Position numbers and translations under genes: made by a program. Positions 1,194 to 31,684 of a stretch of 32,393 nucleotides of DNA are shown in pieces. Each line of letters opens with the position of its first letter. Position 1 is the stretch's first letter. The notes below the pieces were generated by a model. The model was not told the origin of the DNA. It saw only the letters and a program-made list of their open reading frames with translations, and did no database searches. The DNA comes from an uncultured Candidatus Saccharibacteria bacterium. GTDB taxonomy: Bacteria > Patescibacteriota > Minisyncoccia > Minisyncoccales > Staskawiczbacteraceae. The DNA lies in assembly GCA_964363825.1 (NCBI GenBank), contig CAYIJR010000002.1, positions 1 through 32,393 of the forward strand, read 5' to 3'.

Positions 1194-1982
1194 ATGCAAA
1201 AAGAAGTTGGATGGTTATTAAAAGAAAAATATGGAGGGGTCAAAACTCCGGCTTTTGATAAAGATGTTAAACGGCTCAACGCCGATGAGCCGTTAGATTA
1301 CGTTATTGGATTTACGGAGTTTTTAGATTGTAAAATAGACTTGTCCAAAAAACCTTTGATTCCGCGCCCCGAAACCGAATTTTGGGTTCAGAAAGCAATA
1401 GAAGAAATATACCCTGATTTTGTAAGCTTACAAAATCAGGGTATAAGGGTTTTGGATATATTTTCGGGCTCGGGATGTATCGGCATTTCTATTGTGGCCC
1501 AGCTAAGCGGGCCAACCCCGCCCAGCGGGGTGCGTCAGATTCTTATTGTGCGACAGATGGTTTTTGCCGAAAAAGAAAAGAAATTTTTAGAGCAAATAAA
1601 AATCAATTGTAAAATAAATAATATTGATAAAAAAAGATATAAGATAATACAATCAGATGTTTTTTCTAATGTAAAAGGGAAATTTAATTACATTTTTGCC
1701 AATCCGCCGTATATTCCAAAAAACAGAAAAAATAAAGTCCAGTCATCGGTTTTAAAATACGAACCAAAGCAGGCGTTGTTTGGGGGAGAAGATGGCTTGT
1801 TGTATATCAGGAAATTTTTGGCCTCGGCCAAAAATTTCCTGAGCCCCGGTGGCAAAATTTTCATGGAATTTGACTATATTCAAAAAATACAGATTGAGGA
1901 GATGCTTAAAAATTATAACTATAAAAACTGGGAATTCCACAAAGATCAATATGGCAAATGGCGCTGGGTTGTTGTACAATAG
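1194..1982 (+). CDS. prmC: Release-factor glutamine N5-methyltransferase (HemK/PrmC)
   Basis: SAM-binding motif [12 protein letters not shown] and catalytic FANPPY (NPPY). The length and order are HemK-like. Confidence 0.88.
1497..1550 (+). repeat. 54-nt in-frame GC-hairpin insertion inside prmC, bounded by direct repeat TATTGTG
   Basis: TATTGTG occurs at 1490-1496 and 1544-1550. Between them lie two hairpin units: ggccc..gggcc (1496-1513) and ccccgc-cca-gcgggg (1516-1530). The segment encodes [18 protein letters not shown] between the SAM motif and the following helix. Confidence 0.85.
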
Positions 1983-2007
1983 ATTTATAATTATCTAATT
2001 TTTAACT

Positions 2008-2601
2008 ATGAACACCAATAAACAATCAGGGGAAATCTCAAGGGTACTTTTGGCTTTGGCTATCGTGACTCTTATTATTGTCGCAGTCGTGTATTTGGTA
2101 ATCAGGATTACTGATTCAAGAAGCGTCCAAAATCCCAGCCAGCAGAATGGCTCTGTGACCGAAGAACCGCCCAAACCCGTTTATGAAACCCAGCTTGGAG
2201 ATGTGAAATTTTCCGTCCAATCAGCCGTTGATTTGGGGAATGTTTTAAAGGGAGACCTGCAAAAAGGCCAAAAGGATTTAAAAACCACCGAAAAGTTCAT
2301 TTGGGTGGTGGTTGGCGCGCAAAACAAAAGCAAGGTCAATCTGCCGCAGTATTCATGGGACTTGGGCAATATTGTTGACGAAGAAGGCAGGAATTTCGTA
2401 CCCATAACCAACCAAGCATATTTTTGGCTGCCGGTTCCGGATTTATGCGGCGCCCTTTTAAAGCCCGAATTTGACCCAATTCCTTGCACGCGGCTTTACG
2501 AAGTTTCAAAAGAATCAACCAAGCTGAAAATACAGGTTTTAACTTTGTCTGCAACTTCGTCTAAGAAAGATCAAGCCCTTTTGGATTTAAATGTTCGCTA
2601 A
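2008..2601 (+). CDS. Membrane-anchored hypothetical protein (N-terminal TM helix, extracytoplasmic domain)
   Basis: ISRVLLALAIVTLIIVAVVYLVI TM segment followed by a beta-rich domain. No catalytic motif. Confidence 0.6.
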   Translation: MNTNKQSGEISRVLLALAIVTLIIVAVVYLVIRITDSRSVQNPSQQNGSVTEEPPKPVYETQLGDVKFSVQSAVDLGNVLKGDLQKGQKDLKTTEKFIWVVVGAQNKSKVNLPQYSWDLGNIVDEEGRNFVPITNQAYFWLPVPDLCGALLKPEFDPIPCTRLYEVSKESTKLKIQVLTLSATSSKKDQALLDLNVR

Positions 2602-2995
2602 TATGGTTAAAAAAGAAGAAAAAAAAATAGACGACCATGGGCAAGAAACCGATATTGAAAAGGAATTATCGCCATCTCCAGAAAAACTGGCAGAATTTGA
2701 TGATGTGAAGGAAACTATTCCCGGCCAGGAAGCAATTTCCAAGGAGGAGTTAATGAAAGAAGTGGAAAATATGGATTCAGATGACAGCTTGAATATGCAG
2801 GCCCAAAGCCAGGCCCAGGATATAAAATCATTAGAGGAAGAGAAAAAGCTGAAGAAATTATTGGATCTTGCCAGGGCCAAAGGCGTGATTTACGCCGTCA
2901 ATGTTGCCAAAAAAATGGACGATCCTTATGTGCTGGATAAATTTCACGACTTATTGGCGGAACAGGGATACTACAAAAAGTTCATGAAAGAGTAA
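2591..2995 (+). CDS. Acidic hypothetical protein (start 2591 or 2603)
   Basis: Glu/Asp/Lys-rich 134-aa ORF that overlaps the upstream stop. No motif recognised. Confidence 0.5.
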   Translation: MFANMVKKEEKKIDDHGQETDIEKELSPSPEKLAEFDDVKETIPGQEAISKEELMKEVENMDSDDSLNMQAQSQAQDIKSLEEEKKLKKLLDLARAKGVIYAVNVAKKMDDPYVLDKFHDLLAEQGYYKKFMKE

Positions 2996-3024
2996 TCACG
3001 AATATACAAATTAAAATTAATATA

Positions 3025-3064
3025 CAAATATACGAATAACGACGATTTATATATTCGTATATTT
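3025..3064 (+). terminator. Word-repeat hairpin after the 2591..2995 ORF
   Basis: caaatatacgaata (3025-3038) pairs with tattcgtatatttg (3051-3064). The same ATACAAAT/ATACGAAT words recur on both sides across 3001-3085. Confidence 0.45.
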
Positions 3065-3098
3065 GCGAGTATTTGTATATTCGCGACTACTCCAATTT

Positions 3099-5546
3099 AT
3101 GCCTCTTATTATATACGCCCTCATCTTAGTTCTCTTTTTGTTATTGTTGGGTTTTTTTATTGCTCTTTTTTCTGAAAAGTCAGAAAAAAATTCGGTCTTT
3201 GGAAAACTGGAAACAGTTTTGTTTTTAGTTTTAATGCCAAAAAACGAATTAAAAAAAGATGATCAAGCGCAAAAAGAAGAGAAGCTTATTATTTCCCAGA
3301 TGGAGCAGGTGCTGGCCAATTTTTTATATTTAAAAAAGCCCAAGTTATTTGGCGAAATTCCATCAGTGGCTTTAGAAATCGCTTCAGAAACCGGCAACCA
3401 GGATATCTCTTTTTATGTTTCCGTCCCAAAATATTTAGAGACCGTCTTTGAAAAGTATGTGCAAGGAGTATATCCGCAGGCTATCGTGGACAAGGTGCCG
3501 CAGGATTATACGGTTTTTGAACCGCTTGGCCAAACAGCCGGGGCTTATTTAAGATTAACCGACAGCGCCCTATTTCCCATCAGCACTTACCAAAAACTGG
3601 AGAAAGACCCTTTGTCCACCATCACCAATAATTTAAATAAAATTGCAACCAATGAAGGGGCGGCCATACAATTGATTATCAGGCCGCTTTCTGCTTCTTA
3701 TATGAGGAAAAAAGGGGAAAAAGCTCTGCAAAAAATCAGGGAAGGCAAGCACGTCAGGAAAGCTGTATCAGAGGTAATGGAAAACCCTTTTATCGGCGTG
3801 CTGTCAGAAATTTTCCAGAGCGCTCCCAAAAAACCGAAAGACGTGCCGGATTTACAAAAAAAAGAACAGGGGATTGACCAGGTCGGGTATGATGCCATCC
3901 AAAGCAAAATCCAAAAACAGCCCTTTGAAACTAATATACGGTTGATTGCTTCGGCAAATACAAAAGAAAGGGCCGAAGACATTGTCAGCCATTTGGTGAG
4001 CGCTTTCAGCCAATTTTCACTATCGGCGACCAATAGTTTGGATGCAGTTTGGGTCAAGGGGGGCGCTTTGAAAAAATTTGTTTATGATGTCAGTTTCAGG
4101 AACTTTAACTCAAGGCAGAGGAACATTTTAAATACCGAAGAACTGGCCAGTATGTATCATTTCCCGACTTCGTTTACCGAAACGCCATATATTAAGGGTA
4201 TGAAGTCAAAAGTGGCGGCGCCTCCATCGGATTTGCCGGAAAAGGGGATTAACTTGATTGGTAAAGTAGTATTCCGCGGAGAAGAGAAAAAGGTGTATTT
4301 TGCTTCAAAGGACGACCGCCGCCGGCATTTTTATATTGTGGGACAGACCGGCACCGGAAAATCCGCTTTTTTGGAAAATATGATAAACCAGGACATTGCC
4401 AATGGCGAAGGCGTGGCGGTAGTGGACCCCCATGGCGAAACCGTGGAGCATGTGCTGGCCAATATTCCCAAAGACAGGATTGACGATGTGGTGCTTTTTG
4501 AGCCGTTTGACTTGGAAAGGCCCATGGGATTGAATATGTTAGAATACGATACGCCAGAACAAAAAGATTTTGCGGTGCAGGAAATGATCGCCATTTTTTA
4601 CAAATTATTCCCGCCCGAAATCATTGGCCCGATGTTTGAGCATTACATGCGAAACGCCATGCTGGCTTTGATGGCCGATCCGCAAAATCCGGGGACACTG
4701 GTGGAAATTCCCAAAATGTTTACCGATCCGGCATTTTTGCAGGAAAGGTTGGATAAAGTTTCCGACCCGGTAGTCAAAAATTTCTGGGTCAAAGAGTGGG
4801 CGCAGACCACGGGCAATACAAGATCGGACATGCTGGGGTATGTGGTTTCCAAAGTCGGGCGATTTATTGAAAACGAAATGATGCGCAATATTATCGGTCA
4901 AAGCCGTTCGGGGTTTGATTTGGCGGAAATCATGGACAACGGTAAAATATTTTTGGCTAATTTGTCAAAGGGCCAAACCGGGGAAGTCAACAGTTCGCTT
5001 TTGGGGCTGATTTTGGTTTCCAAAATCCAAATGGCGGCTATGAAACGGGCCAGGATGCCCGAAAGCCAGCGCAAAGATTTTTATTTGTATGTAGACGAAT
5101 TCCAGAATTTCACTACAGATTCCATTTCCACCATTTTGTCTGAAGCCAGAAAATACAAATTAAATTTGACCATTGCCCACCAGTACATTCCCCAGTTAAC
5201 CGACCAGATTAAAAACGCCGTGCTGGGAAACGTGGGAACCATTGGCGCTTTTCGTATTGGCGCCGAAGATGCCGAATATTTGGAAAAGCAGTTTGAGCCG
5301 GGCTTTTCGCGCTTTGACTTGGTCAATTTGGACAACTTCAGTTTGGTAATAAAAATGATGCTCAACAACAAAACATCCACGCCTTTTAAAATGGAAACCT
5401 ATCCGCCCAAAGAGGGCAAAAACCAAATCATAGACCCCATCAAAAAAATCTCAAAATTAAAATACGGCAAGCCCAAAGCCATGGTAGAGCAAGACATCGC
5501 CCGGCGGTCGTTCGTCTCGCCTTTGCCACCGCCAAGTAACACTTAA
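3099..5546 (+). CDS. VirD4/TraG/TraD-like coupling-type P-loop ATPase with N-terminal TM segment
   Basis: Walker A IVGQTGTGKSAF, Walker B FYLYVDEFQNF, and a TraG-D_C-like ARKYKLNLTIAHQYIPQL. The N-terminus PLIIYALILVLFLLLLGFFIALF is hydrophobic. ATG 3099 is preferred over the track's TTG 3063. Confidence 0.8.
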   Translation: MPLIIYALILVLFLLLLGFFIALFSEKSEKNSVFGKLETVLFLVLMPKNELKKDDQAQKEEKLIISQMEQVLANFLYLKKPKLFGEIPSVALEIASETGNQDISFYVSVPKYLETVFEKYVQGVYPQAIVDKVPQDYTVFEPLGQTAGAYLRLTDSALFPISTYQKLEKDPLSTITNNLNKIATNEGAAIQLIIRPLSASYMRKKGEKALQKIREGKHVRKAVSEVMENPFIGVLSEIFQSAPKKPKDVPDLQKKEQGIDQVGYDAIQSKIQKQPFETNIRLIASANTKERAEDIVSHLVSAFSQFSLSATNSLDAVWVKGGALKKFVYDVSFRNFNSRQRNILNTEELASMYHFPTSFTETPYIKGMKSKVAAPPSDLPEKGINLIGKVVFRGEEKKVYFASKDDRRRHFYIVGQTGTGKSAFLENMINQDIANGEGVAVVDPHGETVEHVLANIPKDRIDDVVLFEPFDLERPMGLNMLEYDTPEQKDFAVQEMIAIFYKLFPPEIIGPMFEHYMRNAMLALMADPQNPGTLVEIPKMFTDPAFLQERLDKVSDPVVKNFWVKEWAQTTGNTRSDMLGYVVSKVGRFIENEMMRNIIGQSRSGFDLAEIMDNGKIFLANLSKGQTGEVNSSLLGLILVSKIQMAAMKRARMPESQRKDFYLYVDEFQNFTTDSISTILSEARKYKLNLTIAHQYIPQLTDQIKNAVLGNVGTIGAFRIGAEDAEYLEKQFEPGFSRFDLVNLDNFSLVIKMMLNNKTSTPFKMETYPPKEGKNQIIDPIKKISKLKYGKPKAMVEQDIARRSFVSPLPPPSNT
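5381..5516 (+). repeat. Direct repeat copy 1 (functional 3' end of the ATPase gene)
   Basis: Matches 6373-6508 at 124 of 136 positions with no gaps (hand alignment). Confidence 0.9.
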
Positions 5547-5664: not shown

Positions 5665-5967
5665 ATGACTAAAATGATGGTAATAAACGCAATAAAAGTT
5701 AAGATAAAAAGCGCAGAGCCTTTTTTGAAGGAAAAATTCCGAGTCAAAAAAATCGGTATTTTCGGTTCGTATTCAAGGGGCGAGCAGAGAAAGAATAGTG
5801 ATATTGATATTCTCGTTGAATTTTATGAAGAACCAAGTTTGTTTGAATTTATACGGTTAGAGCGATACTTAAAGAGTATTTTAAAAATTAAAGTTGATTT
5901 GGTGATGAAAGATTCCTTAAAGCCATACATCGGAAAGCGTATTTTAGACGAAGTAATTTATGTATGA
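5665..5967 (+). CDS. mntA: MntA-type minimal nucleotidyltransferase (antitoxin of HepT/MntA module)
   Basis: GSYSRGEQRKNSDIDILV is the GSxxRG...DxD pol-beta NTase motif. 100 aa. 4-nt ATGA overlap with the next gene. Confidence 0.85.
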   Translation: MTKMMVINAIKVKIKSAEPFLKEKFRVKKIGIFGSYSRGEQRKNSDIDILVEFYEEPSLFEFIRLERYLKSILKIKVDLVMKDSLKPYIGKRILDEVIYV

Positions 5968-6302
5968 AAAAGAGCTCACCAAAAAGGGAGTATAAAAATT
6001 ACGTTTTAGATATTTACCATTCAACAGAAGAAATTGAAAAGTTTGTTGAAGGTTTTACTTTTGAAAAATTTCAGAGTGACAGGAAAACCGTTTACGCTGT
6101 TATCCGCGCCATTGAAATTATTGGCGAGGCGATAAAAAACATTCCCTCGTCGGTAAAAAGCAAACATAAAGAAATTCCATGGCAAGACGCGGCAGATATG
6201 AGAAATAAATTGATACATGAATATTTCGGCGTAAATCTAAAAGTGGTTTGGAAGGCCGTAGAAAAAGATGTTCCGGACTTCAAAATAAAATGCTGGAGTT
6301 AA
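5964..6302 (+). CDS. hepT: HepT-type HEPN toxin (DUF86)
   Basis: RNKLIHEY is the Rx4H HEPN motif followed by the conserved Tyr. 112 aa. Translationally coupled to the NTase gene. Confidence 0.85.
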   Translation: MKKSSPKREYKNYVLDIYHSTEEIEKFVEGFTFEKFQSDRKTVYAVIRAIEIIGEAIKNIPSSVKSKHKEIPWQDAADMRNKLIHEYFGVNLKVVWKAVEKDVPDFKIKCWS

Positions 6303-6372: not shown

Positions 6373-6529
6373 GCCTTTTAAAATGGAAACCTACCCACCC
6401 AAAGAAGGCAGAAACCAAATTATAGACCCGATTAAAAAAATCTCAAAATTAAAATACGTCAAGCCCAAAGCGATGGTGGAACAAGACATCGCCCGGCGGT
6501 CGTTTGTCCAACAATCGCCGATACAATAA
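6373..6529 (+). pseudogene. Orphan relic copy of the ATPase gene 3' end (direct repeat copy 2 plus its own tail and stop)
   Basis: In-frame PFKMETYPPKEGRNQIIDPIKKISKLKYVKPKAMVEQDIARRSFVQQSPIQ*. A TGA stop lies upstream in the same frame at 6344-6346. Confidence 0.85.
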
Positions 6530-6622: not shown

Positions 6623-7072
6623 ATGGTTCAGGAAGATAATTTTTCTATAAAAGAGATTGTTCAATATAATGATTATGATCTCAAAGGGCTAAATAAACTT
6701 TTGCGCCAGTGGTCGGCAACGGGATATCAAATGGATGCCGGTTATTTTAAATCTTTAATCAAGCATAGCCACGTTATTTTATTGTGCGACAAGAAAAAAG
6801 TTATCGGCACGGTTACCTTAATTCCCGTGCATAAACTTTCGGGCAAGAAGGGATCTTTGGAACATTTGATAGTGGATGAAAAATATCGGGGCAGGGGATT
6901 AGGGGAAAAGTTAATGCGTCATGCTATTGAACTTGCCAAAACACTAAACATGGAAACAGTGTTTTTAACCTATGAACCAGACCGGGTCGCGGCGGGTTCG
7001 CTTTATAAAAAATTGGGGTTTAAAATAAAAAAAACAAATTTTTGTTATTTGCACTTAAAAAATGGAAAATAA
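6623..7072 (+). CDS. GNAT family N-acetyltransferase
   Basis: Motif A is LIVDEKYRGRGLGEKLMRHAIELAK. ATG 6623 is preferred to TTG 6614. Confidence 0.8.
   Translation: MVQEDNFSIKEIVQYNDYDLKGLNKLLRQWSATGYQMDAGYFKSLIKHSHVILLCDKKKVIGTVTLIPVHKLSGKKGSLEHLIVDEKYRGRGLGEKLMRHAIELAKTLNMETVFLTYEPDRVAAGSLYKKLGFKIKKTNFCYLHLKNGK
6779..6792 (+). repeat. Copy of the TTATTGTGCGACAA word (inside the GNAT gene, read L-L-C-D-K)
   Basis: Exact ttattgtgcgacaa. Confidence 0.9.
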
Positions 7073-8268: not shown

Positions 8269-9462
8269 ATGAACGAAAATTTCAAAAAAATCATACAAGA
8301 TGAATTAGCGTCAATCAAAGAAAAGGGGCTTTTTAAGGAAGAAAAAATAATTTCTTCAAGACAGGGAAGGGAGATTGTGGTGGATTCAAAAAAGTATTTA
8401 AACTTTTGCTCTAATAATTATTTGGGGTTATCTGGCAGGCAAGAATTGGCCAATGCCGGTAAAAAAGCGCTGGAAAAATGGGGGTTCGGGCTGTCTTCTG
8501 TCAGATTTATCTGCGGAACTTTAAAAATCCACAAAGAACTGGAAAAAAAGCTGGCCCAATTTATGGGTTATGAAGACGCCATTTTGTATACATCTTGTTA
8601 TGATGCCAATACAGGGTTATTCCAGACAATTTTAACAGACCAAGATGCGGTAATCTCTGACGAATTAAATCACGCCTCAATTATTGACGGCATAAGATTG
8701 GCTAAAGCGGAAAGATTGATTTATAAAAATTCTGACATGAAAGATTTGGAAGAAAAACTTTTACAGGCAAAAAACAAAAGATTAAGGCTGATAGTTACCG
8801 ACGGCGTTTTTAGTATGGAGGGAGGAATTGCCAAAGTGAAAGAAATTGTAGATTTGGCCAAAAAATATGATGCCATGACCGTCGTGGACGATTCGCACGC
8901 CACGGGATTCATGGGTAAAACCGGCAAAGGGACGCACGAATTGGCGGGCGTGGGCAATAAAATTGATTTTATAACGTCAACCTTCGGCAAAGCGTTGGGC
9001 GGGGCTTCCGGCGGATTTATTGTTTCTTCTAAAGAAAACATTGAATTTTTAAGGCAAAGATCAAGGAATTATATTTTTTCCAATTCGCTTTCTCCCACTA
9101 TCACAGCGGTTACTTTATTTTTGGTTGATTATATAAAAAAGAATTCAGCCCCAAGAAAAACGCTTTGGGCAAATTTGAGGCGCTTTAGGCAAAAGATGCA
9201 GGAAGCCGGTTTTGAAGTTTCCAAACAAGAGCATCCCATTGTGCCAATTATGCTGGGCGATGCCAAAGTTGCCAAAGAAATGGCAGAAAAACTTTTTAAA
9301 GAGGGAATTTATGTGCGGGCATTCAGTTATCCGGTGGTTCCTGAAGGAAAGGCAAGGATAAGGGTGCAGATTTCAGCCGCCCACACGCAAAAAGACATTG
9401 ATCAAGCCGTTGCGGCATTTGCAAGGGTTTATAAAGCTGTAAAGCGAGAAATTAGAAAATAG
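8269..9462 (+). CDS. kbl: 2-amino-3-ketobutyrate CoA ligase (glycine C-acetyltransferase)
   Basis: PLP-lysine region STFGKALGGASGGF and DDSHATGF. ATG 8269 (MNENFKKI) is preferred, because the track's GTG 8227 lies inside the palindrome. Confidence 0.85.
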   Translation: MNENFKKIIQDELASIKEKGLFKEEKIISSRQGREIVVDSKKYLNFCSNNYLGLSGRQELANAGKKALEKWGFGLSSVRFICGTLKIHKELEKKLAQFMGYEDAILYTSCYDANTGLFQTILTDQDAVISDELNHASIIDGIRLAKAERLIYKNSDMKDLEEKLLQAKNKRLRLIVTDGVFSMEGGIAKVKEIVDLAKKYDAMTVVDDSHATGFMGKTGKGTHELAGVGNKIDFITSTFGKALGGASGGFIVSSKENIEFLRQRSRNYIFSNSLSPTITAVTLFLVDYIKKNSAPRKTLWANLRRFRQKMQEAGFEVSKQEHPIVPIMLGDAKVAKEMAEKLFKEGIYVRAFSYPVVPEGKARIRVQISAAHTQKDIDQAVAAFARVYKAVKREIRK

Positions 9463-9527
9463 TAAATAGAAAATAGAATACGAAATAATAAAAAATTCTA
9501 CTTTCTAACTTCTACTTTCTATTTTCT
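9454..9527. repeat. Word-repeat hairpin (AGAAAATAGAA arm, TTCTACTTTCT arm), same family as 28566-28646
   Basis: tagaaaatagaatacgaaa at 9467-9485, and ttctactttctaacttctactttctattttct on the right arm. The left arm overlaps the kbl stop. Confidence 0.8.
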
Positions 9528-9535: not shown

Positions 9536-11332
9536 ATGTGCGGAATTGTTGGCTACATAGGAAGCAACAAAGCCCTTCCTTTTTTAATGTCAGGATTGAA
9601 AAAATTGGAATACCGGGGTTATGACAGCTCGGGTGTTTGTGTTAAAGAAAACAACGATTTTTATTTGCTTAAAAAACCGGGCAAAGTCAGCGAGCTGGAA
9701 AAAAATATAGAAAAAGAAAATGTTGCCGGTACTGCTGGCATTGCCCACACCCGCTGGGCGACTCATGGTGTTCCCAATGAAAAAAACGCTCATCCCCACA
9801 CAGACTGCACAGGCAAGATTGCCATTGTCCATAACGGCATTGTGGAAAATTACCAAGCATTAAAAGAGTTGCTCGTGCAAGAAGGGCATAAAATAATTTC
9901 AGACACCGATTCAGAAATCATCGCCCATTTGATTGAAAAATTCTACGATGGGGATATTGAAAACGCAACTACCAAAGCTTTAAAATTGATTGAAGGCGCG
10001 TACGGCCTGGCCATTTTGGATAAAAATTCAGAAAAAATAATTGCCGCCCGGAAAAGCAGTCCGTTGGTGTTGGGCATTGGCCAGGGCGAAAACTTTATTG
10101 CATCTGATGCGTCAGCCATTTTGGGCTACACCAAAAATGTCGTGTATTTAGATGACGGAGAAATGGCGGTGATGACCAAAGATAGCTATGTGGTGAAAAA
10201 ATTAAACGGCGAATTAGTAGACAAAAAAGTCCATCAGATTGCCATGACCATTGACCAGATAGAAAAGAGGGGATTCAAGCATTTCATGCTCAAAGAAATT
10301 TTTGAACAGCCCGAAGCCATTGAAAATACCTTGAGGGGTAGAATTATTGGTAATAAAGTAAAGCTCAATATTGATTTGGACTTGTCGTCAATCCAAAGGA
10401 TTATTATTACTGCTTGCGGCACCAGTTGGTATTCCGGGCTCATCGGTAAATACTTGATTGAAAAGTTGGCTGGAATTCCGGTTGAAGTTGATTATGCTTC
10501 GGAATTTCGGTATCGCGATCCTATTGTGCGACAAAGCGATTTGATGATTGTCATTTCGCAATCTGGCGAAACGGCCGACACGCTGGCGGCGCTCAAAGAG
10601 GCAAAGCAAAAAGGGGCCAAGACATTGGGCATTATCAATGTGGTTGGGTCTACCATTTCGCGTGAAGTTGATTCTGGAATTTACTTGCACGCCGGCCCGG
10701 AAATAGGGGTGGCCAGCACTAAGGCTTTTACCTGTCAGGTTACAGCCTTGGCGTTGCTGGCTTTATATTTTAAACAGGAAAAAGGGGAATCGCAAAAGGG
10801 GATATTAGAAGAATTGCCAAAAATACCGGAAAAAATCAGGGAAATTTTGAAAATGTCCGGCGACATACGTAATTTGGCCGAAAAATTTAAAGAGTACAAA
10901 AACTTTTTGTACTTGGGCAGGAATTTGAATTTCCCGGTGGCCTTGGAGGGAGCGTTAAAATTAAAAGAAATTTCGTACATCCATGCCGAAGGGTATCCGG
11001 CGGCCGAAATGAAGCACGGCCCCATTGCATTAATAGACGAAAATATGCCCGTGGTTTTCATTTGCCCCAAAGACGGCACCTATGCCAAAATTTTAAGCAA
11101 CATGGAAGAAGTCAAAGCCCGCGGGGGGAATATCATTGCCATCACCAATGAAGACGACGGCAACATTTCAAAATTGGCAAACCACATTATCAAAGTCCCA
11201 AAAACCATAGACATTTTGTCTCCATTAATCAATGTCATCCCGTTGCAATTGTTGGCCTACCACATCGCCGACTTGAAAGGATTAAATGTTGACAAACCGC
11301 GCAACTTAGCCAAATCCGTGACGGTGGAGTAG
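9536..11332 (+). CDS. glmS: Glutamine--fructose-6-phosphate aminotransferase
   Basis: MCGIVGY N-terminal nucleophile, two SIS domains (ISQSGETADT), C-terminal KSVTVE. 598 aa. Confidence 0.95.
   Translation: MCGIVGYIGSNKALPFLMSGLKKLEYRGYDSSGVCVKENNDFYLLKKPGKVSELEKNIEKENVAGTAGIAHTRWATHGVPNEKNAHPHTDCTGKIAIVHNGIVENYQALKELLVQEGHKIISDTDSEIIAHLIEKFYDGDIENATTKALKLIEGAYGLAILDKNSEKIIAARKSSPLVLGIGQGENFIASDASAILGYTKNVVYLDDGEMAVMTKDSYVVKKLNGELVDKKVHQIAMTIDQIEKRGFKHFMLKEIFEQPEAIENTLRGRIIGNKVKLNIDLDLSSIQRIIITACGTSWYSGLIGKYLIEKLAGIPVEVDYASEFRYRDPIVRQSDLMIVISQSGETADTLAALKEAKQKGAKTLGIINVVGSTISREVDSGIYLHAGPEIGVASTKAFTCQVTALALLALYFKQEKGESQKGILEELPKIPEKIREILKMSGDIRNLAEKFKEYKNFLYLGRNLNFPVALEGALKLKEISYIHAEGYPAAEMKHGPIALIDENMPVVFICPKDGTYAKILSNMEEVKARGGNIIAITNEDDGNISKLANHIIKVPKTIDILSPLINVIPLQLLAYHIADLKGLNVDKPRNLAKSVTVE
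10521..10535 (+). repeat. Copy of the word CTATTGTGCGACAAA (inside glmS, read P-I-V-R-Q)
   Basis: Exact match to the core attgtgcgacaa. Confidence 0.9.
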
Positions 11333-11374
11333 GGCCGCTCGTACCCGCGTGCCAAAACTCCCGACGGATAATTT

Positions 11375-11408
11375 ACCCCCAAAACTGACGATCGTCACTT
11401 TTGGGGGT
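11375..11408. other. Long hairpin in a GC-rich non-coding 100-nt stretch after glmS
   Basis: acccccaaaactgacga/tcgtcacttttgggggt is a 16-bp stem with one C-C mismatch. There is no T-run on either strand. Confidence 0.6.
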
Positions 11409-11432
11409 AAGCCCTGCCTACCCACCCCTTAC

Positions 11433-11450
11433 CTTATTGTGCGACAAAAT
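11433..11450 (+). repeat. Copy of the word CTTATTGTGCGACAAAAT at the left edge of the high-GC block
   Basis: Exact core, in an intergenic position. Confidence 0.9.
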
Positions 11451-11569: not shown

Positions 11570-12289
11570 GTGAAAATTATCCGCGACGAAAAGCTGGCGA
11601 CGCTTATGTTCGTTCCCGTGGAGAGTAACGAGGTCAAATGGCTTTCTTTGCTCATCAAGACTCTCAAGAAGGGAGACCTGGTACACTACGATGGCAGGGA
11701 AGATGATAAGGAAGATCGCCGGTTCTGCGACATCCATCTGCGCTTTGGCAAGTGGCAGAAGAAGGAGCGCACGAAAAAGTACAAGAATGGAAGTAGCTTC
11801 CGTTGGTCAGAAATCGTGGGTGGGCATAAACTCAAAATCCGTGGAAGCACGGAGCAAGACCGGCACGAGGTCAACCGCGTTCGCAACGGCGCGTGCTATG
11901 TTGGCAGTCTTGTTTACCTTAATGAAGTCGAGGTGGACGGGCAGAGGTCTGTCGTCTTTACCATCGGCTACTGTCCGCACTGCGGCGTGGCAATGATTGA
12001 CTCCACTTCGTGCGAGTGGCGCATCTGCAATGCTTGCGCTGCAAAGTGCAAGCACAACTGGGTCGAAGGTTTGGTGAAAGGGGGCGGCATCCCTGGCGGC
12101 CATGGAGTTGGCAAGTTCTGCGACAAGTGCGGGCGTGGCAAAATGCCCACCAAGAGACAAAAAAAGATGTCTCAAGCAGAACACGCCCTTGAGCTTGAGC
12201 GCAAGCTCGGCTTCCTGACCATCTACAAGAACACGCCCCTCACTCCCAGGCAGATCGTTGAACGGGAAAAAGCTGTTGCTTCCCGCTAA
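11570..12289 (+). CDS. Cys-rich (zinc-ribbon-like) hypothetical protein, 239 aa
   Basis: GTG start 7 nt after GGAG. CPHCG...CEWRICNACAAKCKH...CDKCG cysteine clusters. Sampled GC is about 53%. A clean terminator follows. Confidence 0.6.
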   Translation: MKIIRDEKLATLMFVPVESNEVKWLSLLIKTLKKGDLVHYDGREDDKEDRRFCDIHLRFGKWQKKERTKKYKNGSSFRWSEIVGGHKLKIRGSTEQDRHEVNRVRNGACYVGSLVYLNEVEVDGQRSVVFTIGYCPHCGVAMIDSTSCEWRICNACAAKCKHNWVEGLVKGGGIPGGHGVGKFCDKCGRGKMPTKRQKKMSQAEHALELERKLGFLTIYKNTPLTPRQIVEREKAVASR

Positions 12290-14645: not shown

Positions 14646-14905
14646 AAAAAGAAGAAAAGGAGTATCAGGCAACTGTCGACAAAGTCATTGTTGACGGCAA
14701 GCACGGAAGCTACGGCGTTGCGCGGTGCAAGGAATTGGGCGTAATCACTTTTTCGCTGGACCAGAAAGTCTGGCAAGAAGAAGACGCGCCTGAACCTGGT
14801 ACTTGCGTCATATTGTCAAAAATCCGTAAAAAGCGCCTTGGTTGGCGCGCGGAAGTCGCGCGGTTTGTGACGCCGCTCGATGAACAGCAACATCAGAACC
14901 AGTAA
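14642..14905 (+). CDS. Small hypothetical protein (87 aa)
   Basis: TTG start overlapping the upstream TGA (cTTGA), preceded by AAAGGAGGTG. No motif recognised. Confidence 0.55.
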   Translation: MKKEEKEYQATVDKVIVDGKHGSYGVARCKELGVITFSLDQKVWQEEDAPEPGTCVILSKIRKKRLGWRAEVARFVTPLDEQQHQNQ

Positions 14906-14923
14906 CCAGTAACAGCAAGGAGA

Positions 14924-15850: not shown

Positions 15851-15861
15851 GCCGAGTTCAG

Positions 15862-15898: not shown

Positions 15899-15916
15899 AT
15901 TAATTAACTTTTTTAT

Positions 15917-17453: not shown

Positions 17454-18734
17454 ATGAAAATCCACTTTATTGGCATTGGCGGAATCGGTATGTCTTCATT
17501 GGCGCAGTATTACTTTGAAAAAGGCCACGAAATCAGTGGCTCTGATTTGGCTGAGTCGGAAGTGACGGATTTTTTGAAAAATAAGGGCGTAAAAATTTTA
17601 ATAGGAAATAATGCAGAAAATATAAAAAAAGAGGTTGATTTAATTATTTACAGCCCCGCAGTGCCCAAAGACAATGCCGAGTTGCTACAAGCTAAAAGCT
17701 ACAAGCTAAAAACTAAAAGCTACCCGGAAGCACTCGGCGAACTGACAAAAAATTATTTTACCATTGCGGTTTCGGGCAGCCACGGCAAAAGCACCGCAAC
17801 GGCAATGCTTGGCTTGGCATTAATCAAAGCCGGGCTTGACCCGACGGTTATTGTTGGCACGCGGCTGAAGGAATTTTCCAATAGCAATTTTAGAATGGGA
17901 GGGGGTAAGTATTTGGTAATTGAAGCATGTGAATACGATGGGTCATTTTTAAATTACTCGCCAAAAATAGTTGTGGTAACCAATGTGGACAAAGAACACT
18001 TGGATTATTTTAAAACGTTTGCCAATGTTAAAAAAACCTTCAAAGATTTTATTGTGCGATTGCCGAAAGACGGATTTTTAGTATTTAACAGCGATGATAA
18101 AAATTTGAGGAAAATTTCCCGCGGGAAATTTTCCGCCGTGCCGTATTCGTTGGGACAACAAGAAGCCAAAAAAATAAAAAAAATCTTGCAAATTCCCGGC
18201 CGGCACAACGTGTCAAATGCGTTGGCAGTTTTGACAGTAGCCAGGATTTTAAAAATTCCAGATAATATTACTCTTGAATCAATTTCTCAATACCAAGGCA
18301 GCTGGCGGCGGTTTGAAATAATAAAAACTAAGCCCTACACGATTGTTTCAGACTATGCCCATCATCCCAATGAAATTTCAGCGACATTGAAAGCGGCGCG
18401 GGAAAAATATCCCAAGCAAAAAATATGGCTGATTTTCCAGCCGCATCAATACCAACGGACTTTTTATTTATTCAAAGATTTTGTGAAAGTTTTTAGGCAG
18501 GCAAAAATAGACGAAATTATTATTACTGATATTTATGATGTTGCCGGCAGGGAAGAACAAAAAATCAACCAAAGCGTCAATTCGAAAAAATTGGTAAAAA
18601 GCATCGGTAAAAAATATATAAGATACTTAAGTATTCTTGAAGCGGAAAAATTCGTGAAAGAAAATATCAAAATCGGGGAAGTGCTTGTAATAATGGGGGC
18701 GGGCGACGTATACAAACTTACGGATAAATTCTAA
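17454..18734 (+). CDS. murC: UDP-N-acetylmuramate--L-alanine ligase
   Basis: MKIHFIGIGGIGMSSLAQYY, P-loop VSGSHGKSTATAM, and DYAHHP. Confidence 0.9.
   Translation: MKIHFIGIGGIGMSSLAQYYFEKGHEISGSDLAESEVTDFLKNKGVKILIGNNAENIKKEVDLIIYSPAVPKDNAELLQAKSYKLKTKSYPEALGELTKNYFTIAVSGSHGKSTATAMLGLALIKAGLDPTVIVGTRLKEFSNSNFRMGGGKYLVIEACEYDGSFLNYSPKIVVVTNVDKEHLDYFKTFANVKKTFKDFIVRLPKDGFLVFNSDDKNLRKISRGKFSAVPYSLGQQEAKKIKKILQIPGRHNVSNALAVLTVARILKIPDNITLESISQYQGSWRRFEIIKTKPYTIVSDYAHHPNEISATLKAAREKYPKQKIWLIFQPHQYQRTFYLFKDFVKVFRQAKIDEIIITDIYDVAGREEQKINQSVNSKKLVKSIGKKYIRYLSILEAEKFVKENIKIGEVLVIMGAGDVYKLTDKF
18049..18060 (+). repeat. One-mismatch copy of the word (TTATTGTGCGAT) inside murC, read F-I-V-R-L
   Basis: 11 of 12 match the core. 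Confidence 0.7.
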
Positions 18735-19088: not shown

Positions 19089-20285
19089 ATGGCAGAAATT
19101 AAACCACAAACAGTAGAAGATATTCTAAGCAGGGGAGTCCAGGAGGTTATTGTAAGGGAGGATTTAAAGAAAAAATTGCTCTCGGGCAATAAATTGAGGG
19201 TGTATTTTGGCGTTGATCCGACAGGCAGCCAGCTACATTTGGGGCACGCGGTCGTGCTGCGGAAATTGAAAGCATTATCTGATTTGGGCCATGAAGTGAT
19301 TCTTTTGATTGGAGATTTTACGGCTAAAATCGGCGACCCTTCGGGTAGGGATGCCATGAGAGTTCCACTTTCTGACAAGCAAATAAAAGAAAATATGAAA
19401 GATTACAAAAAACAGGCTACGAAAATTTTAGATTTTTCAAAAGTTAAAATAAAATATAATTCACAATGGCTGGCAAAATTACAACTCGCAGATATTTTAC
19501 AGTTATCCTCCTATTTTACAGTTCAACAAATGTTACATCGCGATATGTTTGACAAACGAATAAAAGAAAATAAGGCAATAAGTTTAAGTGAATTTATGTA
19601 TCCGTTAATGCAGGGATATGATTCTGTGGCTATGGATGTTGATTTGGAAATTGGCGGGAATGATCAAATGTTTAATATGTTAATGGGTAGAATGTTGCAA
19701 AAAACATATGGTAGTAAAAAAGACAAGGATATTTTAACAACGAAGCTTTTACCCGGAATTGATGGGCGGAAGATGAGTAAAACCTATAATAACGCGATTT
19801 ACTTAACTGATGAACCAAATGATATGTATGGCAAAATAATGTCTATTAAAGACGAATTGATTTCAGATTATGCAGAGCTTTGCACGGATTTAGATTTGCA
19901 AGAAATTAAAAAAATGCCCAATCCGCGGGATCAAAAGGCAATGCTGGCAAAAGAGGTTGTGAAAATGTATCATGGGGAGAAGGCGGCCGTTCAAGCGGCG
20001 GAAAATTTTGATAAAATTTTCCGCCGGCACGACACGCCCTCTGAAATGCCGATTTTTGAAACCTCGCGCCAAAATTACCCCATTTTAGACTTATTGTGCG
20101 ACAGCGGTCTGGCTGAATCAAAAAATGATGCCAAAAGGGTTATTGAAGGCGGAGGCGTAACCGTCATTGCGAGCGGAGCGAAGCAATCCCTAAAAGTTAC
20201 AGATTGGCGGGAAGAAATAAAAATTGAGGATGGAATGATTATTCAATTCGGCAAAAGAAAGTTTGTAAAAGTTAAATTAAGGTAG
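19089..20285 (+). CDS. tyrS: Tyrosine--tRNA ligase
   Basis: HLGHAV (HIGH), KMSKT (KMSKS), and a C-terminal S4-like domain. Confidence 0.92.
   Translation: MAEIKPQTVEDILSRGVQEVIVREDLKKKLLSGNKLRVYFGVDPTGSQLHLGHAVVLRKLKALSDLGHEVILLIGDFTAKIGDPSGRDAMRVPLSDKQIKENMKDYKKQATKILDFSKVKIKYNSQWLAKLQLADILQLSSYFTVQQMLHRDMFDKRIKENKAISLSEFMYPLMQGYDSVAMDVDLEIGGNDQMFNMLMGRMLQKTYGSKKDKDILTTKLLPGIDGRKMSKTYNNAIYLTDEPNDMYGKIMSIKDELISDYAELCTDLDLQEIKKMPNPRDQKAMLAKEVVKMYHGEKAAVQAAENFDKIFRRHDTPSEMPIFETSRQNYPILDLLCDSGLAESKNDAKRVIEGGGVTVIASGAKQSLKVTDWREEIKIEDGMIIQFGKRKFVKVKLR
20090..20103 (+). repeat. Copy of the word CTTATTGTGCGACA inside tyrS (read L-L-C-D-S)
   Basis: Exact core. Confidence 0.9.
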
Positions 20286-28558: not shown

Positions 28559-28565
28559 GTTTGGT

Positions 28566-28646
28566 GAGAATCTAGAATCTAGAAAATAGAATCTAGAATA
28601 CGAAACGTTCACATTCTATTTTCTACTTTCTATTTTCTACTTTCTA
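28566..28646. repeat. Word-repeat hairpin of the same family as 9454-9527, in a divergent spacer
   Basis: tagaaaatagaat (28580-92) pairs perfectly with attctattttcta (28613-25). It shares tagaatacgaaa and ttctactttct with the kbl-glmS spacer. Confidence 0.85.
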
Positions 28647-28654
28647 ATAAAATT

Positions 28655-28822: not shown

Positions 28823-29505
28823 AAAACATACCACAGCACATTGTTTTATTTCCCGATGGCAACCGCCGCTGGGCAAAAGAAAAAGGATTAGATTCTTTCA
28901 AAGGCCACTATCAAGGATATAAAAATATCATTAATTTTGGCGAATGGTGCAAAAATAGGGGAGTGAAAGTTATTACCGCTTTTGGATTTTCAACCGAAAA
29001 CTGGAAACGGTCGGAAGACGAAGTAACATATCTCATGAATCTGCTGAACATGGGTTTGGCGGAATCTCTTGAAAGGTTCCAGAAAAACAATGTGCGGGTA
29101 AAAATTATCGGTCAGGTGGAACGATTACCAAAGGTTTGCCAAAAAACAATACAAGACATTGAAGAAAAAACAAGAAACAATACAGCCTTGCACCTGAACT
29201 TAGCTGTCAGCTACGGAGGCCAATGGGATATTTTACAAGCTGTCAAAAAGATTGCTGAAGAAAAAATTCCGCCAGAAAAAATTGATGAAGCATTGTTTGA
29301 AAATTATTTATCAACAGCCGGTTTGCCAAATCCAGATTTGGTCATAAGAGCCGGCGGCGAAATGCGCCTTTCTAATTTTGTTTTGTGGCAGGCAGCTTAC
29401 TCGGAATTATATTTTTCGCCAAAAATGTGGCCGGAATTTTCAGAAGAAGATTTTAATCTGGCTTTGGAAGAATTTGACCGGCGCACTCGCCGTTTTGGAA
29501 AATAG
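28819..29505 (+). CDS. uppS: Undecaprenyl (isoprenyl) diphosphate synthase, cis-prenyltransferase
   Basis: VLFPDGNRRWAKEKG and IRAGGEMRLSNFVLWQAAYSELYF. Confidence 0.9.
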   Translation: MKNIPQHIVLFPDGNRRWAKEKGLDSFKGHYQGYKNIINFGEWCKNRGVKVITAFGFSTENWKRSEDEVTYLMNLLNMGLAESLERFQKNNVRVKIIGQVERLPKVCQKTIQDIEEKTRNNTALHLNLAVSYGGQWDILQAVKKIAEEKIPPEKIDEALFENYLSTAGLPNPDLVIRAGGEMRLSNFVLWQAAYSELYFSPKMWPEFSEEDFNLALEEFDRRTRRFGK

Positions 29506-29527
29506 TTAAAATATAGTCTTAAATTGG

Positions 29528-29559
29528 TGCAAAAATGCTACGATCGTATCATTTTTGCA
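29528..29559 (+). terminator. Hairpin after uppS
   Basis: tgcaaaaatg (29528-37) pairs with catttttgca (29550-59). The loop contains acgatcgt. No clean T-run. Confidence 0.4.
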
Positions 29560-29628
29560 TGAATTTAAAGTAGAAATTAGAAAATATGCAAAACATATTT
29601 TTTAAATTCTAAATTATAAAAAAAGAGG

Positions 29629-30129
29629 TTACGCCTCTTTTTTTATTAACGTTTTCGCCATCTCTATCCACTTTGATCGGCGCGGCTTTTGCTTGTACTT
29701 GGCGGTTGATTTGTGGATTTCCATCAAAGTGTGCAAATCACTTTTGGGCCATTTGGCCAAATAGACACCTTTGTTTTTATGGATAATGGCAACCGCTTTT
29801 TGCCACATTTCAAAATCCCGTCTCTTTTTTTCCAGTTGTAATTTATTTTTTTTGAAAAATGGGACAACTGCGTCATGGATGCCATCAATGTCTTGGACAG
29901 AAAACCGCGCTTGGTCTTTGATAATATGTATGTCTCCACAGCCCATCATTTTTTTGACTTTTCCCATCATTTTGGAATTTTCTTTCGGGCTGGTGATTAC
30001 AAATTGCAGCTTCCAACGGTAATAGGTGGGCGAGCCTGTCCTTTCATGCCTTGTGTCTTTGCGGAATTGCAAATCAAAACAGCAGTCGTTGTTAATTAGA
30101 GAGGTAATAGTTGAATTTTCTTTTGCCAT
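29629..30129 (-). CDS. Free-standing single-motif LAGLIDADG-type homing endonuclease homolog (degenerate motif)
   Basis: The I-CreI-like layout aligns by eye: ITSLINNDCCFDLQF (motif position), RWKLQFVITS, MGCGDIHIIKDQARFSVQDIDGIHDAVVPFFKKNKLQLEKKRRDFEMW. ATG 30129. Confidence 0.65.
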   Translation of the reverse strand: MAKENSTITSLINNDCCFDLQFRKDTRHERTGSPTYYRWKLQFVITSPKENSKMMGKVKKMMGCGDIHIIKDQARFSVQDIDGIHDAVVPFFKKNKLQLEKKRRDFEMWQKAVAIIHKNKGVYLAKWPKSDLHTLMEIHKSTAKYKQKPRRSKWIEMAKTLIKKEA

Positions 30130-30151
30130 AATATTATTATAGCAAAGAATT

Positions 30152-30165
30152 AGTTGTGCGACAAT
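30152..30165 (+). repeat. Variant copy of the word (AGTTGTGCGACAAT)
   Basis: The core ttgtgcgacaa is exact. Confidence 0.75.
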
Positions 30166-30173
30166 CCCCAAAT

Positions 30174-30210
30174 CTTATTGTGCGACTCCGCTTAGCGGGG
30201 TGCGACAAAT
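30174..30210 (+). repeat. Composite unit: word interrupted by GC hairpin
   Basis: cttattgtgcgac-tccgc-tta-gcgggg-tgcgacaaat. Confidence 0.9.
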
Positions 30211-30213
30211 ATC

Positions 30214-30241
30214 TTGTTTATTATTATTTTTTTGATAATAT
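30214..30241 (+). promoter_or_regulatory. Candidate promoter of rdgB with extended -10
   Basis: TTGTTT at 30214-19, a 16-nt spacer, then TGaTAATAT (TAATAT at 30236-41). SD AAGGAGA lies before ATG 30271. Confidence 0.5.
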
Positions 30242-30270
30242 TACGTTAACCAATCAAAAAGGAGAAACGT

Positions 30271-30858
30271 ATGCAAATAGTTCTTTCAACGCGCAATCCA
30301 AGCAAAGCAGAGCAAATTAAGGCAATCTTTGCGTCTTTGCCAATTTCAATCTTAACCCTTGCTGAGGCGGGGATTGAAGGCGAAGCAATTGAAGACGGTG
30401 TAACTCTTCAAGAGAATGCTTTAAAAAAAGCTCTATTTGCCCATCAGCCGGGATTATGGGCAATGGCTGATGACACGGGAATATTCATTGATGCCCTTAA
30501 TGGTTTGCCTGGTGTAAATACCGCCCGGTGGTCAGGTGGCCACAAAGAAACCGAACAAATGACCAACTGGATATTAAAACAGCTTGAAGGCTTTGATAAC
30601 CGCTCGGCTACGTTTGAAACAGTGGTTGCACTTGTTTCACCAAATGGCGAACAGTTCTTTTTTGGCGGCAAAGTGAGGGGGCGTATTCTTGAGGCGCCAA
30701 AGACTCAGCCACAACCCAAAATGCCCTACAGCTCAATTTTTTCGCCAGAAGGCAGTGATAAAGTTTGGGCAGAAATGACCATTGAAGAAGAAAACGATAT
30801 TTCGCATCGCGGGCAAGCTTTTCGTAAAGCAAGAGCTTTCTTAATAACATTTCTATAA
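30271..30858 (+). CDS. rdgB: Non-canonical purine NTP pyrophosphatase (RdgB/HAM1 family)
   Basis: STRNPSKAEQI, ADDTGIFIDALNGLPGVNTARW, and ISHRGQAFRK. Confidence 0.88.
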   Translation: MQIVLSTRNPSKAEQIKAIFASLPISILTLAEAGIEGEAIEDGVTLQENALKKALFAHQPGLWAMADDTGIFIDALNGLPGVNTARWSGGHKETEQMTNWILKQLEGFDNRSATFETVVALVSPNGEQFFFGGKVRGRILEAPKTQPQPKMPYSSIFSPEGSDKVWAEMTIEEENDISHRGQAFRKARAFLITFL

Positions 30859-30898
30859 ATCAACCCACGCCAACGGCCTCGCAAAAATAGCGGGGCTT

Positions 30899-30934
30899 TT
30901 TATTGTGCGACCCCGCTTAGCGGGGTGCGACAAG
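30899..30934 (+). repeat. Composite unit: word interrupted by GC hairpin
   Basis: tttattgtgcgac-cccgc-tta-gcgggg-tgcgacaag, directly after the rdgB terminator hairpin gcctcgc..gcggggc-ttttt. Confidence 0.9.
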
Positions 30935-31015
30935 TTTTGACTGCATTACTATAATTTGATAGCATATATCTGGTGCTTGATCACTGTTTAATAAACTTAA
31001 TGAAGGGGAGTTGAA

Positions 31016-31477
31016 ATGAACGGCACTGTTGTTGGAATTTTCGTCCACGCTAAAGCTGGCGAACCAATGCAGCAAGTGCAAGAAGTTGAGGCGGTCGCCG
31101 GCAAAGGCCTTAGTGGAGACCGATATTGTGCAGGCGAAGGAAGTTTTAACAAAGGCGCCCAGGGAAAAAGGCAAGTAAGTCTCATCAATGCGATTTTCTT
31201 TGAGGGCAGTGATTTTGAGTATGCCGATAGCCGCCGCAATATAGTCGTTAAGGATGTTGAGCTGATGTGGCTTATTGGTAGGGAGTTCAAAATCGGAGAA
31301 GCTCTTTTCAGGGGCGTAAAGTACTGCGACCCTTGCGAAAAACCAAAAAGCTCGCAAAACAAAGAAAAAATTTTCAAAGAGGAGTTCTTTGATCGCGGAG
31401 GGCTTATTGCAGAAGTTTTAGTGAGTGGTGTGATTAAGACAGGGGACGCTATTATTTCTCCGCCAAAAGGGTACTAA
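31016..31477 (+). CDS. MOSC domain-containing protein
   Basis: 153 aa. GKGLSGDRY, RQVSLIN, and the conserved-Cys segment FRGVKYCDPCE. Confidence 0.8.
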   Translation: MNGTVVGIFVHAKAGEPMQQVQEVEAVAGKGLSGDRYCAGEGSFNKGAQGKRQVSLINAIFFEGSDFEYADSRRNIVVKDVELMWLIGREFKIGEALFRGVKYCDPCEKPKSSQNKEKIFKEEFFDRGGLIAEVLVSGVIKTGDAIISPPKGY

Positions 31478-31494
31478 CTGCCTAAAAAAACAAT

Positions 31495-31527
31495 GCCGCT
31501 CAGCAACTTCTGCTGGCGGCCTTTTTA
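31495..31527 (+). terminator. Rho-independent terminator of the MOSC gene
   Basis: gccgc(t)cagca-acttc-tgctggcggc, followed by cttttt. Confidence 0.8.
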
Positions 31528-31540
31528 TTCATAGAAGATT

Positions 31541-31597
31541 CTTATTGTGCGACCCCGCTTAGCGGGGTGCGACAAAATCATGGATGTCGCACAATAA
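31541..31597. repeat. Composite unit plus the only reverse-orientation copy of the word (inverted pair)
   Basis: cttattgtgcgac-cccgc-tta-gcgggg-tgcgacaaaat (31541-77), catggat, then tgtcgcacaataa (31585-97). Confidence 0.9.
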
Positions 31598-31667
31598 AAA
31601 TGGGCGAGGCATCGGTGGGCGAGGGGAGTAGTACGATTTAAGATTTTTGATTTTAGATTGCAGATTT

Positions 31668-31684
31668 CTATTGTGCGACAAATT
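31668..31684 (+). repeat. Copy of the word CTATTGTGCGACAAATT, 11 nt from the recombinase stop codon
   Basis: Exact core. Confidence 0.9.

Follow-up and report, generated by a model that had tools for sequence, protein, structure and literature searches.

A short DNA word, ATTGTGCGACA, recurs with strong over-representation and strand polarity in a 32,393-nt stretch of DNA (contig CAYIJR010000002.1 of assembly GCA_964363825.1, positions 1 to 32,393; hereafter the window) from an uncultured Candidatus Saccharibacteria bacterium, which related DNA and recombinase homologues place among Staskawiczbacteria-like Patescibacteria. The word appears to be a new chromosome signal directed at the terminus rather than one for DNA uptake. 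The explanation that we prefer, at a probability of about 0.4, is that its copies are Xer half-sites forming a polar terminus array, closest to the XDS sites of Bacillus subtilis and to the FtsK-orienting polar sequences (KOPS).

With up to one mismatch allowed, ATTGTGCGACA matches the window 12 times, against 0.56 matches expected from 100 dinucleotide shuffles, of which the largest count was 3. Eleven of these copies lie on the plus strand and one on the minus strand, and the exact 9-mer TTGTGCGAC occurs ten times on the plus strand and once on the minus strand. The local enrichment exceeds 300-fold for an 11-mer, and the most strand-skewed 8-mers of the window are fragments of the word. Alignment of the 12 copies, from which hairpin inserts were taken out beforehand, gives the consensus T-Y-T-T-ATTGTGCGACA-R, around 16 nt long, and eleven positions of T-Y-T-T-A-T-T-G-T-G-C-G-A-C-A-R are nearly invariant; one relative uses the dialect form ATTATGCGACA. 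An earlier note on this DNA, made from the letters alone, had listed copies of the word and called it over-represented. Every listed copy is present, although some starts were off by 1-2 nt and have been re-derived here as starts of 15-mers, and the word itself is real, although its conserved stretch is longer than that note gave. Five copies are coding (prmC, GNAT, glmS, murC and tyrS) and seven intergenic, six of the latter within 1.5 kb beside xer, and their flanks are unrelated to each other. The copies and related matches are as follows.

1491..1538, plus strand: split variant copy in prmC, reading ATTG TG, a 36-nt double GC hairpin and TGCGTCAG; the insertion is in frame and adds 12 residues.
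1542..1556, plus strand: copy in prmC, read I-V-R-Q.
4332..4346, plus strand: degenerate match ATTGTGGGACA, which differs from the 15-mer at 3 positions and lies a short way upstream of the Walker-A (P-loop) codons in a TraG/VirD4-like gene; probably a chance match and not counted as a member.
6778..6792, plus strand: copy in a GNAT acetyltransferase gene, read L-L-C-D.
10520..10534, plus strand: copy in glmS, read P-I-V-R-Q; a variable dipeptide is replaced.
11433..11447, plus strand: intergenic copy at the left edge of a GC-rich patch; the terminator of glmS (11373-11410) lies on one side of it and a promoter-like site, TTGACA-17-TATGAT, on the other.
18048..18062, plus strand: variant copy ATTGTGCGATT in murC, read F-I-V-R-L.
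20090..20104, plus strand: copy in tyrS, read L-L-C-D.
30150..30164, plus strand: variant copy GTTGTGCGACAA; in reverse complement it gives TTGTCG, the -35 of the promoter-like site TTGTCG-17-TATAAT that belongs to a LAGLIDADG gene.
30174..30208, plus strand: copy with the 15-nt palindrome CTCCGCTTAGCGGGG and a flanking TGCGA duplication.
30899..30933, plus strand: copy with CCCCGCTTAGCGGGG and a TGCGA duplication, directly 3' of the terminator of a Ham1-like gene and before a promoter-like site.
31541..31575, plus strand: copy with CCCCGCTTAGCGGGG and a TGCGA duplication, after the terminator of a MOSC gene; it forms an inverted pair with 31584-31598.
31584..31598, minus strand: the sole reverse copy, ATTGTGCGACAT, preceded by a C-rich stretch, homologous to position 347(+) of locus L010 and pointing away from dif.
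31667..31681, plus strand: copy just past the xer stop codon, antisense to xer; its position is kept in L211, L070 and L201/L220, and in L203 as ATTATGCGACA.

The five coding copies are read in two frames, as had been proposed before: their translations are LIVRQ in prmC, PIVRQ in glmS and FIVRL in murC, and ILLCDK in the GNAT gene and LLCDS in tyrS. The accompanying claim that conservation acts at the level of DNA likewise stands, since the copies in genes occupy two frames and take the place of variable residues, with no indels. A further copy lies in gltX, where locus L202 reads TTA TTG TGC GAC AAA and L203 reads TTA ATT GCT TCG CAA AAA; this species (L220) and L213 share the L202 copy. Both the glmS and the gltX copy are thus substitutions without an indel, and because the glmS copy shows no indel against 12 orthologues and the gltX codons are replaced, the coding copies are built by substitution and not by insertion of a mobile unit. 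Among 80 metagenome glmS loci, those of distant relatives with 52-69% identity lacked the word and served for the glmS alignment only. A repeat of the MITE or REP type (miniature inverted-repeat transposable elements; repetitive extragenic palindromes) would have a longer repeated unit, shared flanks and gain by insertion, whereas the word has unrelated flanks and arises by substitutions without indel. A protein-level cause of the word was also considered and fits only the copy in MurL, which encodes the conserved YCATK motif and is largely determined by the protein, and probably two other orthologous sites in relatives.

The window is cut at its end by the gene that gives the array its reference point.

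31695..32393, minus strand: xerD-like tyrosine recombinase gene, 3' two-thirds, cut by the window end.

Because its product, the 319-aa Xer P0001, is 75-99% identical over more than 100 Staskawiczbacteria-like proteins, this gene is the housekeeping xer of the lineage. The window probably abuts the replication terminus, since the genes on both sides point at xer in every relative and the GC skew, positive throughout the window, switches sign at xer in L216. Contigs L201, L209, L210 and L220 belong to the same species (Hainich groundwater, 99-100% protein identity), and around 40 kb of this species underlie all same-species statements made here.

Orientation was counted in the window and 11 terminus-proximal loci for the ATTNTGCGACA family and other single-mismatch matches to ATTGTGCGACA. 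Among the 38 copies, some of which are orthologous (MurL in five loci, gltX in three), 35 point toward dif-xer and 3 away, and the orientation flips at dif-xer, where dif stands for the candidate site described below.

Window: 11 toward dif-xer, 1 away.
L220 (same species, other side of dif; copy in gltX): 1 toward, 0 away.
L202: 3 toward, 0 away.
L213: 3 toward, 0 away.
L203: 3 toward, 1 away.
L211: 2 toward, 0 away.
L218: 5 toward, 0 away.
L070: 1 toward, 0 away.
L001: 2 toward, 0 away.
L010: 1 toward, 1 away.
L012: 1 toward, 0 away.
L003: 2 toward, 0 away.

An orientation-blind scan of GTDB genomes with the exact 14-mer returned mostly chance matches among the matches listed, together with an enrichment in Staskawiczbacteria-like metagenome-assembled genomes (MAGs), and provided 13 test loci from relatives. 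In 13 of these 13 loci the copy agrees with the local sign of the GC skew and with the majority gene strand. The earlier note had likened the 11:1 strand polarity to polar motifs of the KOPS or Chi type and had suggested plotting orientation against GC skew and the xer locus; the polarity is of the KOPS type and extends from the window to the relatives' loci, and the copies follow the sign of the skew and flip at xer. Two arrangements help to tell replication from transcription. In L203, a copy lies on the minus strand between xer(+) and a LAGLIDADG gene(+), and the copy just past the xer stop codon is antisense to xer in the window, L211 and L070; because of these two, the data favour a dif or replichore rule over a sense-strand rule. 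The bias toward the leading and sense strands could also be expected of a Chi-like recombination hotspot or of a signal that acts in sense-strand RNA, for instance a target of an RNase or of an RNA-binding protein. Both are highly improbable, as the L203 copy and the antisense copy after xer argue against an RNA signal, the word is too long for a Chi of 5-8 nt, and neither explains the likeness to dif or the pile-up beside xer. To our knowledge, the word exceeds the length of any known Chi.

Comparison of the regions upstream of xer yielded a 28-bp imperfect palindrome of 11-6-11 form, TTGTCGCAAAA-TGTAGG-TAAAGCGACAT, at 598-625 of the same-species contig L201, around 330 bp past the window end. 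In its general form, (T)TGTCGCAAAA-TGTAGG-TAAAGCGAC(A/G)T, it lies 50-130 bp upstream of xer in L201, L202, L203, L211, L212, L213/215, L216/217 and L070, and it is kept across genomes of 31-40% GC. At the equivalent place L001 has ACTTCGCATAA-TGGTTC-TTTATCGAAGT, which resembles a classical CGCATAA-type dif. Its 11-6-11 form, its conservation across genomes and its place beside a single xer gene make the palindrome a likely candidate dif, while the dif sequences of Escherichia coli and B. subtilis, used as queries, gave no convincing match. The same arrangement is seen in difSL, which lies beside xerS. The systems difSL/XerS and difH/XerH share with this lineage one Xer and a dif immediately beside its gene, a likeness that applies to the candidate dif and not to the word; we know of no scattered polar half-sites described for either. 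The small protein P0121 (109 aa), encoded upstream of dif, is membrane-anchored, gave no Pfam match and has nothing to suggest that it binds DNA.

In reverse complement, TTGTCGCACAAT, the word shares 11 of 12 positions with TTGTCGCAAAAT, the left arm of the candidate dif plus the first central base. An equal match to the 47-nt dif region was reached by 27 of 100,000 shuffled words and by 20 of 100,000 random 12-mers. The word may therefore be read as a single arm of dif, as discussed below. The inverted pair at 31544/31585 was considered as a dif in its own right and rejected, because the two arms are placed back to back and L010 has not kept the pair.

The copies are spread unevenly. Six of the 12 in the window lie in the 1.5 kb beside xer, all of them no more than 2.6 kb from the candidate dif, and the remaining copies lie 12.6-31 kb from it. 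No word was found in the next 4.9 kb of the same species (L209), in 14.8 kb of a relative (L223) or in 11-21 kb of L212 and L216/217 (21 kb for L216). In L218, whose Xer is 83% identical and whose GC content is 50%, four ATTATGCGACA copies stand no more than 1.4 kb from xer, and pyrG contains one variant; L203, L213 and L202 each carry a single variant of this kind on that side, and the copy density in relatives is 0-2 per 8-20 kb. Among the GTDB matches listed, at least five of the 13 loci lie within around 10 kb of xer, one around 27 kb away and seven elsewhere, four of these seven representing two orthologous coding sites. The word is thus lineage-restricted, occurs in dialects and is concentrated at dif, though not confined to it.

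This distribution bears on the proposal, made in the earlier note, that the word resembles a DNA-uptake sequence at around one copy per 3 kb. Such a word would accumulate by biased uptake of same-species DNA through the com and type IV pilus machinery, and several features would suit it: the strong over-representation, the fitting into variable codons by substitution, the one inverted pair between convergent genes, the dialect in relatives and the absence of copies inside GC-rich patches. It also speaks for uptake that com genes occur in Patescibacteria and that Saccharibacteria can be transformed naturally (PMC10633639). Yet an even density is not supported by the roughly 40 kb of this species: half of the copies lie within 2.6 kb of dif, and six copies in 1.5 kb beside xer face none in the adjacent 4.9 kb, in 14.8 kb of the relative or in 21 kb of L216. 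L212 and L216/217, whose Xer is 80-83% identical, lack the word altogether. The orientation moreover shows around 92% polarity, with a flip at dif, and the word is similar to a dif arm. No uptake sequence is reported for this group; no paper found in the literature mentions the word or an uptake sequence there. The known DNA uptake sequences (DUS) of Neisseriaceae and uptake signal sequences (USS) of Pasteurellaceae occur at around one per kb genome-wide. They resemble the present word in being 10-16 nt long, hugely over-represented, placed in tolerant codons by substitution, often beside terminators, arranged in inverted pairs and divided into lineage dialects, but this word is polar (11:1 in the window, 13/13 in relatives' loci) where they are evenly oriented, and it is patchy, concentrated at dif and dif-arm-like. 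We know of no such replication polarity in known uptake sequences, and uptake is a very unlikely origin of the word.

Several copies carry GC hairpins, and the claim that the word is their insertion point is upheld by three intergenic copies and the split prmC copy. The copies at 30177, 30902 and 31544 read ATTGTGCGA, C(C/T)CCGCTTAGCGGGG as the insert, and TGCGACAA; the inserted GC palindrome unit CCCCGCTTAGCGGGG (15 nt) thus lies in three intergenic words with a TGCGA duplication at its flanks, TGCGA being the centre of the quasi-palindrome TTG|TGCGA|CAA in the word. In prmC, two units make up the 36-nt insertion. The unit occurs at 30185-30199, 30910-30926, 31552-31568 and 1497-1531 of the window and at about 1085-1112 of L209, where it sits at the tip of a CAC-TTCG-GTG hairpin with CTTCG flanks, a site without the word. 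It behaves like a very small insertion that duplicates 5 nt of its target (TGCGA or CTTCG) and is always centred in a small quasi-palindrome. As the L209 unit sits in a non-word hairpin, the unit targets small palindromes in general, and the word is a favoured target and not a part of the element. These hairpins, with their 5-nt duplication in three words, could indicate that the word itself is a footprint of recombination or mobile DNA, either as leftover dif-like arms from Xer-integrated cassettes resembling integrative mobile elements exploiting Xer (IMEX), or as part or target of a GC-hairpin mini-element. It fits this origin that the xer-uppS stretch differs in every relative and that the LAGLIDADG, Ham1 and MOSC genes of the window are each bounded by directly oriented words. 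However, no cassette is flanked by a two-armed site, and in the sole inverted pair the arms stand back to back. Substitution without indel gave rise to the copies in glmS and gltX, and the sequences beside the copies are unrelated; the hairpin is also inserted at a site without the word; and the variable cassettes of L211 and L216 have no words. A footprint origin is therefore decidedly unlikely.

Another possible reading is a polar motif read by a motor and not by Xer. In this case the word would be of the KOPS or AIMS (architecture imparting sequences) type and would direct a DNA translocase (FtsK/SpoIIIE-like) or another motor to dif. The flip at dif-xer and the density rising toward it are as expected; those copies of the relatives that lie away from the terminus still follow the GC skew (7/7 among the GTDB matches listed), and an origin of coding copies by substitution is what any genomic word under selection would show. 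KOPS, SRS (SpoIIIE recognition sequences) and AIMS are G- or purine-rich words of 7-8 nt, read in the case of KOPS-type motifs by the FtsK gamma domain, enriched a few fold and unrelated to dif arms. The present word shares their replication-co-oriented polarity, the switch at dif and the rise in density toward it, but is around 16 nt long, far more than 7-8 nt, and its 11/12 match to a dif arm points to a recombinase as its reader. The enrichment of more than 300-fold locally for an 11-mer also far exceeds that of KOPS, and we consider a translocase motif independent of Xer rather unlikely.

Under the Xer half-site reading, the word would be a single binding arm, a dif-arm-like half-site, for the lineage's one Xer recombinase. 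Such half-sites would be repeated as a polar array aimed at dif-xer from both chromosome arms and densest right beside it, and the array would act as an orientation-dependent terminus signal. It may unload or stop complexes of structural maintenance of chromosomes (SMC) proteins, as at the XDS sites of B. subtilis, or it may direct or confine a DNA translocase toward dif, as KOPS do. The words are oriented like the far dif arm, so that a motor coming from the origin side would meet the opposite face of the bound protein from that at the near dif arm. It could be speculated that this orientation is compatible with a one-way, trap-like arrangement.

In the terminus region of B. subtilis, XerD bound at dif-like XDS sites unloads Smc-ScpAB (Karaboja 2021, as summarised in PMC11840125 and PMC12322038). 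XDS sites are extra dif-like, non-recombining sites around the terminus dif, tens or fewer in number and presumably bound by Xer. The word resembles one dif arm and lies in the terminus region around the candidate dif, as XDS sites do. Set beside XDS, the present system has a single Xer with dif beside xer and strictly polar sites that flip at dif. Several of its sites fall inside coding genes as far as 31 kb off, and the sites as a whole are limited to a sub-lineage and occur in dialects. The Ter sites bound by Tus in E. coli and RTP in B. subtilis are also asymmetric (14-23 bp) and form two opposed groups around the terminus, but number around ten per genome and rarely lie in genes, and Tus and RTP have a narrow taxonomic range; nothing in these sequence data shows fork arrest at the word.

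Several observations weigh against half-sites for Xer. Among the GTDB matches listed, seven of the 13 loci share no synteny with the roughly 60 kb that surround xer. Housekeeping genes at 12-31 kb from dif contain five copies, each of which required several substitutions, a heavy cost for accessory sites. L212 and L216/217 have the same dif and an 80-83% identical Xer and yet no word, L001 retains the word though its dif arms differ, and the dialect position (C, T or G, against A in dif) has no counterpart change in dif. The conserved 5' flank TYTT mismatches the central region of dif, and the likeness between word and dif was spotted after the fact, in a comparison made with data already seen. 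As 85-100% of genes are co-oriented with replication, the polarities of replication and transcription are not fully separable. Finally, the binding of the word by Xer is a prediction, and the identity of the palindrome as dif is itself inferred.

The surroundings of xer hold further features. The stretch between uppS and xer (29505-31695) is a hypervariable spot at the terminus, with other genes in every relative (L203, L211, L212, L213, L216 and L218): MOSC and Ham1 in the window, and elsewhere a DEAD helicase, PIN, PP-binding, OmdA or DUF218. It also contains the following gene.

29629..30171, minus strand: gene for a free-standing homing endonuclease of the LAGLIDADG type, whose true start is probably an ATG near 30129.

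A free-standing LAGLIDADG gene is always found near xer, also at L203 11045-11542, L213 10093-10584, L218 2040-2531 and L001 5188-5652; in L001 it lies within the 3' end of xer, with a remnant of the xer C-terminus downstream. Its -35 is supplied by the reverse complement of the word (TTGTCG-17-TATAAT/TATACT). A promoter element was considered as the role of the word and rejected: the reverse complement serves as LAGLIDADG -35 in several genomes, but the other copies have no consistent -10.

Elsewhere in the window, a 136-nt direct repeat, 91% identical (5381-5516 and 6373-6508), duplicates the 3' end of the TraG/VirD4-like gene and brackets a nucleotidyltransferase/HEPN pair (5665-6302), which looks like an inserted toxin-antitoxin cassette. 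Two patches of 47-54% GC (11570-12289 and 13908-16377) stand in a background of 38-40% GC; they contain no word, their open reading frames have no Pfam match except a weak one to an IS91-type zinc finger, and they are probably foreign DNA. A long AT-rich palindrome, AGAAAATAGAA...TTCTATTTTCT, occurs in two intergenic copies, upstream of glmS (9446-9527) and of rpmA (28566-28652). A 60-nt intergenic stretch (29562-29620; L035 3146-3205) is 90% identical to a distant Staskawiczbacteria MAG, against around 70% in genes, and may be a small conserved non-coding element. No tRNA match was found in the window, nor any Rfam covariance-model match at gathering score. The 14-mer used in the GTDB scan is also contained in a repeat family, AATGAATCGTGTTGTTATTGTGCGACAAGTCTA, of L027, L043 and L059 (MAG CAZTME01, 37% GC), a MAG whose Pseudomonadales label looks doubtful.

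Taken to its full extent, the half-site reading would mean that Xer, seated on dozens of oriented half-sites, acts as a directional barrier or unloader for loop-extruding or translocating motors and so delimits a terminus domain of a minimal Patescibacteria chromosome, with selection rewriting the codons of housekeeping genes. We hold this unlikely, and a strand-polar DNA-uptake sequence less likely still. Such a barrier would be a bacterial counterpart of convergent CTCF sites. We know of no account of the organisation, segregation and resolution of the small chromosomes of the candidate phyla radiation. If the half-site reading is true, it would provide a candidate dif site for a large Parcubacteria lineage and the first candidate cis-acting terminus signal in bacteria of this radiation, as well as a practical marker to locate the terminus and orient contigs in metagenome-assembled genomes. 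It would also mean that arrays of Xer half-sites, so far described from B. subtilis, can be polar and imposed on coding sequence.

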